Shown here piece after piece: positions 6,493 to 10,130 of a DNA stretch of 11,837 nucleotides. This DNA comes from Candidatus Zixiibacteriota bacterium (GTDB taxonomy: Bacteria > Zixibacteria > MSB-5A5 > GN15 > FEB-12), in contig JBGSIV010000222.1 in the NCBI GenBank assembly GCA_041742355.1, forward strand, positions 1 to 11,837, in the 5' to 3' direction. The notes under the pieces are model-generated. The model made no database searches, was not told the DNA's origin, and saw nothing but the letters and a program-made list of their open reading frames with translations. Within the stretch, counting starts at the first letter, position 1. Every line of letters begins with the position of its first letter. Position numbers and translations under genes: made by a program.

Positions 6493-8121
6493 ATGGGAAG
6501 ACAAGAACTGAGGTCATTGGTTATTGCCGGCGTAATGGCATTTGGGGCTGCCGGTGGTGCAATTGGGCAGGAACAGAGTGAGTTCGCGTTGATCAGGGAG
6601 CCGTTCTTCACCAATCCTCTGATATGGAAGATGACGAAGGGAGTGACCAATACTCATTGGGGGAAGGACCTATTCGGTACACCGCAATCGGCATGCCAGA
6701 GCTACATCATGTCACCCAGCTACGAACTCTATACGGCCATGTCCTTTCAGGTCGACCGTGATTGGTGCAGATTAGTCTATCTGGAGACTCTGGCCGATTG
6801 GATTCGGGCGCACGGATCGGCGGGAGGCGCGAACTGCCAGATGCTTGCCCCCTCCAGTATCGACGGCACTGTCCCATGCGATGGGGAGACCGGCAGCTAC
6901 ATCTATTACCTGTATGTGGCGGATCTCATGAACAACCGCATCGTTCGCCCCCAATACCGCTGGGACACTCAAGTTTGGACCTGCAACACGCCGATCATCA
7001 GTACCAACCTGGAACGTCCTCGCGATCTTGATCTTAACGACAACTGGACCTTTTGGCCGGGCACCGATGACTACCTCTGGGTGCTCAGCGGTCGCCACAA
7101 GATCCTGCGGTACACGGTCGACGGTGTTCTTCATGCCACGCACGACTACCCCGGATGTGACGGTGCTGAGGGGACATTCTGCCGTGTGGCGGCAGTTGCG
7201 TCCGGGCGAAGCTACTGGGCGCCGCAGCCCTATTCCAATTGCGACGATCTCTACGTGGCCGACGTGGGTAACCGCCGCCTGGTTTGGCTTATCAAATGGC
7301 ATGGCGCGGAGCCTTTGGCGTGGATGGGTGAGGTCCCCATTTCTTCCACAGTCAGTGACATCGAGGTAGACTACATGGGGCATGTCTGGGTAACCGATCA
7401 AGCCGCCGGTACCATTACGAAGTACACCTCCGAACTCGAGCCGCTCTGTGTATTCGGTGGCACCGGGGTGGGAGAGAATCAGTTCATCGAGCCGGTTAGC
7501 ATATCCAATACCGCCGGGTACCTCGGGTGCGCCAACATGGCCGTTCTCGAGAAGTGGACAGACTCAAGCGGCGGCCGGTACTTCGCAATTGGTACCGATA
7601 TCGTTGATCTTACGATTAGTTCGGCGCCCGGTGAACATTCCCACGTGGTGGACTTCGTGCTCGTCGATCCGTCGGATGTCAGCGTCAAGGTGTACAACGG
7701 TCAAGGTCAGCTGGTAAAGACTCTTGTGGACGCGGCGCTCTGGTCTGGCACCTGCAGGTACACTTGGGATGGCAGGAATAGTGCCGGACAGGACCAGCCG
7801 ACCGGTGAATACTGCGTCACCGTAGTCGATACCAGTGCTGTCTGGAACGTGAGTGATAGCACTCCGGTGAATGTCGTTGTGCGGGAGCAGTGGGTACACC
7901 ATGTCGCCCAATGCTGTGCGCTTCGGGGTGATGTCGATGGTTCCGGGCATCACAACGTGGCCGATTTGACCTATCTTGTAGCATACCTGTTTCGGGGCGG
8001 GCCGGCTGCGCCCTGCTTCGAACACGCCGACATCAACGCCGATCGATCCATCACTGTCGCGGACCTGACATTTTTCGTGAACTTTCTCTTCCGTGGCGGA
8101 GCGGCTCCTCGCAGTTGTTAA
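6493..8121 (+). CDS. Exported NHL-repeat beta-propeller protein with FlgD Ig-like and C-terminal dockerin-like domains
   Basis: Start ATG 6493 (SD GGAGAGG, signal peptide ..AIG/QE). NHL motifs LYVADLMNNRI, LYVADVGNRRL, VWVTD and G.GENQF.EP. FlgD_ig segment VSVKVYN..GQLVKTLV..YTWDGRN..G...TGEY (~7678-7827). Duplicated EF-hand-like dockerin repeats GDVDGSG..NVADLTYL and ADINAD..ITVADLTF (7912-8118). Confidence 0.85.
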   Translation: MGRQELRSLVIAGVMAFGAAGGAIGQEQSEFALIREPFFTNPLIWKMTKGVTNTHWGKDLFGTPQSACQSYIMSPSYELYTAMSFQVDRDWCRLVYLETLADWIRAHGSAGGANCQMLAPSSIDGTVPCDGETGSYIYYLYVADLMNNRIVRPQYRWDTQVWTCNTPIISTNLERPRDLDLNDNWTFWPGTDDYLWVLSGRHKILRYTVDGVLHATHDYPGCDGAEGTFCRVAAVASGRSYWAPQPYSNCDDLYVADVGNRRLVWLIKWHGAEPLAWMGEVPISSTVSDIEVDYMGHVWVTDQAAGTITKYTSELEPLCVFGGTGVGENQFIEPVSISNTAGYLGCANMAVLEKWTDSSGGRYFAIGTDIVDLTISSAPGEHSHVVDFVLVDPSDVSVKVYNGQGQLVKTLVDAALWSGTCRYTWDGRNSAGQDQPTGEYCVTVVDTSAVWNVSDSTPVNVVVREQWVHHVAQCCALRGDVDGSGHHNVADLTYLVAYLFRGGPAAPCFEHADINADRSITVADLTFFVNFLFRGGAAPRSC

Positions 8122-8209
8122 TGCGCTGGCTGGGCTCGAGGGACTGCGACCAGTGTCCGACTGGGCAAGGTGACGGGAAAGACAGGAGATCGGCAATCCA
8201 TATTTGCCC

Positions 8210-8238
8210 TTGACAGCAATCCCCTGCACATCTATCTT
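8210..8238 (+). promoter_or_regulatory. Near-consensus sigma70 promoter
   Basis: TTGACA (8210-8215)-N17-TATCTT (8233-8238); predicted TSS ~8245. Confidence 0.75.
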
Positions 8239-8244
8239 ACTTAT

Positions 8245-8708
8245 AGAAACCGCCAAAGTTTCCCGTTCGCAGTCACCGCCAATCTTATCCTCACCACGGC
8301 CCGCAGCTCTTTGCAAGCTGGAACTCGATCCCGCCCCACCTCGGCATGCCCTCACTGTCGGAACATGAACCGTTCTGCTCAGGGAGGAGGTGCCAGAACA
8401 GTGAGTCGCCCCGGCTGACCGTAACCGCCGCGCCGACGCCGGGACGACGGAAGAGAAGAGACGGAGAACGAATCCGGACCAGAAGCCAACAAGCGCGAAG
8501 GCTCGAAACGGCCTCCCGCATGATTCCGCCGCGGCGCTGTCGTCATCACGGATGATGTCTGCCCGACGATCGACCTCTGCACGCTATCATCTCTGGGTCG
8601 CGGGCTACCTCCGCAACGGAATACCGGCTAGACCGTTTCACGCGGAAACAGATCTCCGTAACACGAAGCACCCCGACAGTCGGGTAACCGGCTGTCGGGA
8701 TTTCTTTT
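8245..8708 (+). ncRNA. Candidate ~460-nt structured non-coding RNA of unknown family
   Basis: Bounded by a strong promoter and terminator, has no ORF with a convincing SD plus protein-like sequence, and contains many hairpins and five ANGGA motifs. No tmRNA, RNase P or SRP signature was recognised. Confidence 0.5.
8672..8708 (+). terminator. Rho-independent terminator
   Basis: CCCGACAGTCGG-GTAA-CCGGCTGTCGGG (12 bp, one G-U, GNRA loop) followed by ATTTCTTTT. Confidence 0.8.
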
Positions 8709-8890
8709 GCTCCCCTGAGTACGGGATTCCCCCCACACATCGAGCTTACCGGCGAGTTCAGGCTTGCCCTCTGATCTGCTCAAACGCCCCTCTGTCACAA
8801 TTGTAACCCCATATCTCCGTTGCTGCTAGATCGAGTCCTTGGCCCTGCGGGGGCCATCGGCATCCCGCTTGCACCTCCCCGGGGAGAACA

Positions 8891-9154
8891 GTGAACGAAC
8901 CTTTAGGGCAGCAGGTTGGTATGAGAGTCAAATTCGTGCTGACAATGGACAACCTTGTGGTGGACGACCGTTCTATCGACCAGCTCATCCTTGACTGGGA
9001 GGCCGATGTCGATCAGTCGGAGATTCTCCAGTTGTCCCACCAGTGGATTACCTCCCGGAACTTCCTCACGCAGCGCATGTTGGGATTGGTACAGGTCGGG
9101 GAGTCTTCCCTGACGATCGAGCCATTAGAAGAGGACGAGAATGCCCAGTGGTGA
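8891..9154 (+). CDS. Small acidic hypothetical protein
   Basis: Protein-like composition and codon usage. Start is either GTG 8891 (SD GGGGAG) or ATG 8921. Overlaps the next gene by 14 nt. Confidence 0.7.
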   Translation: MNEPLGQQVGMRVKFVLTMDNLVVDDRSIDQLILDWEADVDQSEILQLSHQWITSRNFLTQRMLGLVQVGESSLTIEPLEEDENAQW

Positions 9155-9476
9155 GTGGTTAACCCAGGCCCGTGCGGTCGCCGAGCAGGCGATCGAAACC
9201 GCGAAGTCGGTGCTCTCGGCCGCCGGTTCGCTTCAGCAGTGGATTCTGGAGCAGTTCGGGCAGAACGGCCTGTACGCCGCCTACTTTGTCGGCCTGGTCC
9301 TGGGCGTGTTCCTCGCCATTCAGATCGTTCGCATCACTTTCGCTACGCTCAAGTACCTCGTGCTCCCGGGCGTGGGACTGGCTCTGATCGGGTCATTCTT
9401 CCTGCCGTACTCGTTCTTCTTTCTTCTCCCGATTACCGTGAGCGCATGTTCGCTCATTCTGCTCTTCAAGGGATAG
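9141..9476 (+). CDS. Small membrane protein (about 3 TM helices)
   Basis: GAGGA SD (9131-9135). Amphipathic N-terminal helix followed by three long hydrophobic segments. Confidence 0.75.
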   Translation: MPSGEWLTQARAVAEQAIETAKSVLSAAGSLQQWILEQFGQNGLYAAYFVGLVLGVFLAIQIVRITFATLKYLVLPGVGLALIGSFFLPYSFFFLLPITVSACSLILLFKG

Positions 9477-9665: not shown

Positions 9666-10130
9666 ATGGAACAAGAGGCACTGCCACAGACCTGTATCAG
9701 CTGCAAACGAGCCCTCACGCGGCACCGCGGCGTCCTGATCTGCCTGCACTGCAATCCCGAGGCGATCGATACCAGCGACATCTTCGTCGACACGATCGAA
9801 ACCGATGACCACACGTTCATCGAGTGCCCTGGCGTCACTATTTACGACGCCGAGACTGGGGAGATCGCCGAGGGCGTGCGGTGGCGGGATGAGAATGACG
9901 CCACCAAAGGTTACGACGTCATCGGCAAGCAGATTTACGCTCCCAATCACAAGCACCGCCGCCGGATCAAGAAAGACGCGGTGGGGAAGATTCGCCGGTG
10001 CCAGGCGTGCCAGGATTACACGATCCGCATGCGCCGTCCCGAAGGGCGCGACTTCTATATCCCTTCGGTCCACCACCGCGACCGGACGAAGCTCCGCCCG
10101 ATGGAGCATGTGACCTACGAGCCGAAGTAG
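9666..10130 (+). CDS. Hypothetical cytoplasmic protein with three CxxC motifs (probable zinc-binding)
   Basis: 154 aa with host-like codon usage. CISC, CLHC and CQAC motifs, one extra Cys, and basic His/Arg patches. Confidence 0.75.
   Translation: MEQEALPQTCISCKRALTRHRGVLICLHCNPEAIDTSDIFVDTIETDDHTFIECPGVTIYDAETGEIAEGVRWRDENDATKGYDVIGKQIYAPNHKHRRRIKKDAVGKIRRCQACQDYTIRMRRPEGRDFYIPSVHHRDRTKLRPMEHVTYEPK

Follow-up and report, generated by a model that had tools for sequence, protein, structure and literature searches.

A promoter and an intrinsic terminator enclose positions 8210–8708 of the window, the 11.8-kb (11,837-nucleotide) stretch of Candidatus Zixiibacteriota DNA analyzed here, and the question is whether the enclosed sequence is a gene in its own right and, if so, what its product does. 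The unit is a stand-alone RNA gene of ~450 bases that belongs to no known family and is conserved across two zixibacterial families. Its features are collected in Table 1.

Table 1. Features of the RNA gene and of the adjoining downstream promoter region (window coordinates)
Feature	Position	Strand	Basis or remark
σ70-type promoter, TTGACA-17-TATCTT	8210–8238	+	transcription start predicted near 8245
C-rich leader with CCUCAC (8289, 8350) and ACCGCC (8249, 8275)	8245–8380	+	motif conservation
Very strong Shine-Dalgarno sequence AGGGAGGAGGTG, includes ANGGA motif	8381–8392	+	pairing with own 16S tail
Minigene GUG-AGU-CGC-CCC-GGC-UGA, five codons	8401–8418	+	use of GUG putative
Hairpin directly behind the start codon	8405–8448	+	starts at +5 in the window copy
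Purine-rich linker	8449–8495	+	seen in sequence
Hairpin with ACGGAU hexaloop, predicted CsrA site	8544–8557	+	conservation, covariation
Degenerate copies of the mostly unpaired motifs GCACACGCUC and CCURUCAUCC (consensus)	8580–8591	+	conservation
3′ motif, consensus UCCGYAAUACGA, adjoining the terminator	8655–8666	+	conservation, alignment A2
Intrinsic terminator	8672–8708	+	12-pair GTAA-capped hairpin at 8672–8699
Palindromic site (8720–8736) and σ54-type promoter (8858–8873) of the downstream gene	8720–8873	+	outside the RNA

A stand-alone RNA gene in two families of Zixibacteria

Homologues were collected by synteny, because a DNA search with the region in about 60 relatives returned a single, weak match. 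Of 130 regions taken from upstream of the gene at 8891 (family f1 supplied 90 and other families 40), 90 matched an anchor pattern composed of a Shine-Dalgarno (SD) sequence together with a start codon 380–620 nt upstream of that gene; one of these (L126, from another family, with GTG and no promoter) was dropped, leaving 89 units. The units occupy 81 of the 90 f1 loci and eight of nine loci in the sister family f4, and among the remaining 31 upstream regions of other families, none besides L126 matched the anchor pattern. The nine f1 misses comprise two cuts at contig ends, three units found elsewhere, one displaced upstream, one unparsed region, one paralogue, and one unassigned case. A model of the 5′ module matches 42 of 55 f1 genomes and 12 of 15 f4 genomes; for the 3′ module, the counts are 46 and 13 (training sequences included in both). 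Outside these two families, the matches of the module models (R1 and R2) were all weak (E above 0.001) and unpaired, and the full unit was not found in the five weak-match places examined there. Metagenomes contributed 13 loci, several of them duplicates, and added little; an exact-pattern scan of a species collection gave at least 120 matching stretches, the 80 listed being from unrelated phyla, and is not informative on range. A second 5′-module copy at a contig end (G110:C65 74271–74320, L187), with a score identical to the first, is probably an assembly duplicate.

The boundaries of the unit are conserved along with its presence. The promoter had been described as the best in the window; it is the best of three promoter-like sites there, against a chance expectation of 5.1, and is upheld by its conservation: the strict pattern is found in 79 of the 85 units that are long enough, 142–270 nt upstream of the start codon, compared with 0.9 in shuffled sequences and one of 37 non-unit loci. 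The GNRA-capped terminator hairpin of 12 bp, likewise read correctly from the window, is present in all 89 units. Homologous units measure 330–554 nt, with a median of 450.

The unit moves to new loci in one piece. G076 and G116 carry the whole unit at unrelated loci, where convergent genes follow it; G084 has its 3′ part, running up to the contig end, in a similar setting; and in G175, the unit and the 8891 gene are on different contigs. The 3′ motif UCCGYAAUACGA accompanies the RNA on relocation.

No tRNA, tmRNA, or Rfam match is found in the window, in agreement with the preliminary description, which had seen neither tmRNA nor RNase P features and proposed an RNA of unknown family. With Rfam 15, no match reached the gathering score in the window or in 15 homologous loci (best E-values of 0.55–0.69), and the genome's own tmRNA, RNase P RNA, and SRP RNA lie outside the unit, on C246, C30, and C216. 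6S RNA was rejected, as RF00013 matched neither the window nor the genome (94% complete) and the architecture differs from a long hairpin with a central bubble. No known family considered was matched in all of the features compared. In the literature searched, with subscription papers and supplementary motif tables outside its range, no description of this RNA was found.

Of seven RNA sequencing runs selected with 7900–9200 as the query, six, from five studies, were compared with the window, and all six contain near-identical contigs, which lie within 8359–8668. These contigs show presence in RNA libraries; their ends cannot map the ends, strand, or level of the RNA. Two of them, from two studies and without loose ends, start at 8368 and 8369, 12–13 nt before the SD sequence, and the others start at 8359, 8381, 8419, and 8430. 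The discrete 8245–8708 transcript anticipated earlier is covered in part, the contigs shown leaving 8245–8358 and 8669–8708 uncovered, which is not evidence of absence there. The X3 and X20 contigs also include the downstream gene, and in X14, X16, and X19 the matches listed elsewhere in the window are short, conserved, loose-ended pieces only. Together, the conservation, the relocation of whole units, the lack of a conserved protein, the contigs from RNA libraries, and the lack of an Rfam match support independent transcription of an RNA outside the known families.

The ribosome-binding site and its minigene

Contrary to the preliminary description, in which the open reading frames of the region lacked SD sequences, a conserved ribosome-binding site with a minigene forms the core of the RNA. 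The segment AGGGAGGAGGTG forms 12 pairs with the 16S rRNA 3′ tail of this genome (−19.1 kcal/mol) and precedes the GUG codon at 8401. Across the units, the median SD strength is −11.5 kcal/mol, compared with −6.5 kcal/mol for 2482 long ORFs, which places the unit SD sequences within the top tenth of the genome's genes. In relatives, the start codon is AUG, most often as AUG-X-stop, and the SD-to-start spacing peaks at 7–8 nt (~65 of 89 homologues). The frame closes within three codons in 46 of the 89, versus six and seven in the other two frames; 34 are start-X-stop (two codons), and the full range is 1–55 codons. Although the anchor was chosen by its SD and start pattern, neither spacing nor frame closure was part of the choice. 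When relatives are merged into 61 clusters, the early stop is retained in 31.1 of 61, versus 4.0 and 3.9 in the other frames. After clustering, the stops at codon 3 are TGA (19), TAA (11), and TAG (4), and since all three stop codons are used, the stop function rather than a particular sequence is selected. Ten further copies outside the anchor set, of which two were read by eye and one duplicate was dropped, comprise eight of at most three codons and two longer ones, of 7 and 14 codons; these copies are not fully independent, as several were picked by the 5′ model.

The start codon is followed by a hairpin. The first helix begins between +10 and +15 in 54 of 89 homologues, compared with 28 of 150 real gene starts, a position that we take to be near the leading edge of the initiating ribosome, judging from footprint size. 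Because a strong SD sequence is kept and the start runs quickly into a stop, ribosome loading likely serves the regulation of the RNA itself and not protein synthesis. No conserved peptide, no frame-specific protein similarity, and no conserved read-through or frameshift product were detected. Dual-function sRNAs such as SgrS and SR1 also carry an ORF inside a regulatory RNA; in those the peptide is conserved, whereas here it is not, and with ORFs of 1–55 codons this class was rejected.

Folding, short motifs, and a predicted CsrA site

The description of the RNA as a large structured one holds in part. Without the terminator, bodies fold better than shuffled sequences in 88 of 89 units, with a median z-score of −3.1 and 70 of 89 below −2 (12 shuffles each). 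The exception is the window copy, whose body without the terminator folds worse than shuffles (z = +1.7 to +2.2); for 8245–8708 as a whole z = −0.38, and only terminator-containing windows score below −2. All of the stems listed from the window copy are in the sequence, but in the absence of folding stability above that of shuffles there, most of them prove nothing. Structure is therefore shown at the family level only, and no single alignable fold is conserved. The RNA is best described, judging from the comparison of its copies, as fast-evolving, with short conserved motifs and local hairpins instead of one large alignable fold. Strain contigs also differ locally. Within 8396–8472, X3 and X14 differ at 14–15 positions, in the post-start hairpin and the linker, with several indels in X14, while the other strains are over 99% identical, indicating that this segment evolves fast. 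At 8582, X14 and X19 diverge and run on into a fuller CCAUCAUCC motif, and so the window copy seems to carry a deletion there.

The short motifs are distributed along the whole RNA. CCTCAC is found in 58 of 89 units; with the 15 units lacking a scored 3′ motif excluded, it is found in 49 of 72 leaders, versus 4.8 expected. Clusters of AGAGA are found at +40 to +85 in homologues, GCACACGCUC in 31 of 88 units and CCURUCAUCC in 49 of 88 (about nine each by chance), and UCCGYAAUACGA in 62 of 88 (4.2 expected). The C-rich leader is possibly removed by processing near 8360–8370, which is weakly hinted at by the lack of contig cover over 8245–8358. A search for targets or partners of the unpaired conserved motifs found none: the longest matches to the genome's 16S rRNA span 5–8 bases and are taken as chance, and CCURUCAUCC, when paired by eye with the flagellin start region, shows no covariation.

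Collection of the homologous regions upstream of the 8891 gene, which had been recommended, also revealed a covarying hairpin. An ANGGA-loop hairpin is present in 41 of 89 units (44 hairpins in total), versus 2.4 expected. Among strains, the only variants within its 14 positions are at the free N (8549) and at 8555, where a G-U pair is kept. In an ungapped alignment of 48 sites picked by sequence only, 70.8% of cells pair and 29 double changes are found; none of 500 shuffles reaches the score and slid controls score below it, although relatedness can inflate the score. ANGGAN loops are the high-affinity CsrA site (PMC7652899), and the RNA body is predicted to bind CsrA. The gene csrA, which adjoins flgK-flgL in this genome, is found in 97 of 101 family genomes, and because it is near-universal its co-occurrence with the RNA is uninformative; fliW is also present. 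The flagellin leaders of the order, which serve as an internal positive control, carry the same type of hairpin within 90 nt in 23 of 30 cases, 15 of them at −34 to −41, and ANGGA in the SD sequence. This two-site layout, with a hairpin ~36 nt before the start and ANGGA in the SD sequence, is seen in G000:C244 4770–4820 (L190) and in L195–L223. Combined with csrA and fliW, it suggests that a flagellin-FliW-CsrA switch operates in Zixibacteria. Apart from the flagellar cluster, this genome has a second gene whose product carries a flagellin N-terminal domain and is shorter (G000:C20 874–1278, L191), and three matches to this domain are found in most genomes of the order.

Possible functions of the RNA

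The reading that we favor, at a probability of roughly 0.45, is that ribosomes, by loading onto the minigene, protect a structured regulatory RNA, which in addition binds CsrA. The C-rich leader would be cut off near 8360–8370, and ribosomes would then initiate and terminate repeatedly on the minigene, held before the hairpin, which might prolong their occupancy. Such occupancy may block RNase E/G or RNase Y, both of which are present, and shield the body from 5′-end-dependent decay, such that the RNA level would follow ribosome availability. CsrA would bind the hairpin as well as ANGGA at the SD sequence and start codon, competing with ribosome loading, while the unpaired conserved motifs may contact partners. 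In E. coli, ribosomes on upstream ORFs (uORFs) impede RNase E scanning, with protection limited by how quickly they leave (PMC9943677). Several observations count against the favored reading. In the window copy, GUG at 10-nt spacing replaces the canonical AUG, and this degenerate copy is the one seen in the RNA libraries. One strain contig loses the minigene stop, the frame exceeds three codons (up to 55) in 43 of 89 homologues, and the ANGGA-loop hairpin is absent from 48 of 89 units, including six of eight sister-family copies. RNase J, the enzyme classically blocked by SD-bound ribosomes, was not found over the cut-off in the 94% complete genome, and this too counts against the reading. Stab-SD elements also provide for ribosome binding near a 5′ end, but without a start codon, and block RNase J; here, a start codon is present.

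Extended further, and more doubtfully, ribosome loading could make the RNA a new kind of regulator, a “dummy mRNA,” in which start-X-stop with a hairpin brake would gauge free ribosomes and relay their availability to the CsrA-FliW-flagellin switch. If so, CsrA would have an RNA antagonist acting alongside FliW, outside the Gammaproteobacteria, and the gene would be unusual in that its conserved product would be a translation event and not a peptide. According to PMC7652899, joint action of FliW and sRNAs has yet to be determined for any species, and the unit would offer a test of joint modulation of CsrA in one species. Its components have partial precedents. Similar to the start-stop sites (10.1101/520783) and uORF obstacles (PMC9943677) described in E. 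coli, the minigene would provide initiation without a useful product and possible downstream shielding; those elements act in cis on coding mRNAs, whereas the present transcript has no coding sequence after the minigene. Both types of element are on record in or before mRNAs, and no free-standing RNA built on one was found in the literature searched.

An unlikely alternative is that the RNA is purely a decoy for CsrA, imitating a flagellin-type leader: the SD sequence and AUGGA would be CsrA sites, and the stop would limit junk translation. ANGGAG is found at the SD sequence in 76 of 89 units and ATGGA in 40 of 89, compared with 27% and 7.5% of 548 strong-SD genes in this genome (the test applied to units being slightly laxer), and the covarying hairpin together with the flagellin combination of a hairpin site and an SD site fits a decoy. 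A study of start-stop sites (10.1101/520783) discusses stop codons as a means of mitigating stray initiation. The RNA resembles the CsrB/CsrC/RsmY/RsmZ sponges in standing alone, in its ANGGAN-loop hairpin, and in the presence of CsrA in the genome (PMC7652899), but it differs in having 1–3 sites instead of many, a minigene, co-occurrence with FliW, and no Rfam match. The small number of sites speaks against a decoy, as do the lack of overall GGA enrichment (431 versus 417 in bodies), the 48 units that keep AUG at canonical spacing with no GA following, and the absence of the hairpin from half of the units though csrA is nearly universal.

Somewhat less probable is a base-pairing regulator or sRNA sponge, in which the G-rich SD sequence would bait a C-rich sRNA or the leader and body motifs would pair with mRNAs. 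The model is RosA of Bacillus subtilis, a processed RNA that likewise is stand-alone and has a G-rich SD sequence before a tiny ORF of seven codons, the SD sequence being the pairing region (PMC8216469). The repeated C-rich leader motifs and the unpaired body motifs are consistent with pairing, and Hfq was not found in the 94% complete genome, which is counted on the same side. The RNA has no sequence match to RosA and no known partner sRNA, and its immediate stop and hairpin are conserved across families. No partner was identified by the searches; leaders pair with the SD region of their own unit scarcely better than those from other units (52 of 87), with no coevolution; and pairing alone does not explain the selected immediate stop or the position of the hairpin.

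Improbable as well is a ribosome sink, an abundant RNA that would park 30S or 70S ribosomes, or drain initiator tRNA and release factors, and so damp translation. The top-decile SD sequence, early stop, and post-start hairpin are consistent with a sink, and in three runs the unit is the only long near-identical piece of the window among the matches listed. A single site per RNA would nevertheless require ribosome-scale copy numbers, which contigs cannot show, and a sink does not explain the conserved body motifs.

A decayed small-protein gene, or an ORF recoded by read-through or frameshifting, is largely refuted. The layout of promoter, long leader, SD-AUG, ~250 nt, and terminator resembles that of a small-protein gene, and the window copy looks degenerate; against this stand the three stop types at codon 3, the lack of any frame open longer after the stop or with frame-specific protein similarity, indels of one and two bases among close relatives, and the promoter and motifs kept across two families. 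Although a minigene and terminator precede the same gene in 89 loci, a leader-peptide attenuator of the 8891 operon is very improbable, because the unit also sits before convergent genes or away from that gene (G076, G116, G084; G175) and the gene has its own σ54-type promoter, found in 85 of 89 loci and also where the RNA is missing. Lacking a fixed position 5′ of a controlled gene, the unit was likewise rejected as an attenuator or riboswitch.

The downstream gene is found in 91 of 101 family genomes and 146 of 151 phylum genomes; together with its upstream elements it occupies window 8720–9154. Its product, a protein of 77–87 residues across those 146 genomes, matched no known family, and its named homologues are mostly labeled Zixibacteria. 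A palindromic site, detected with a loose pattern that had no control, lies ~140 nt before the gene. A flgB-like gene in this genome is also preceded by a σ54-type site. Farther along the window, a 154-residue ORF at 9666–10130, with no Pfam or NCBIfam family and weak Atlas leads only, contains CxxC pairs and a basic stretch and is syntenic in G001.
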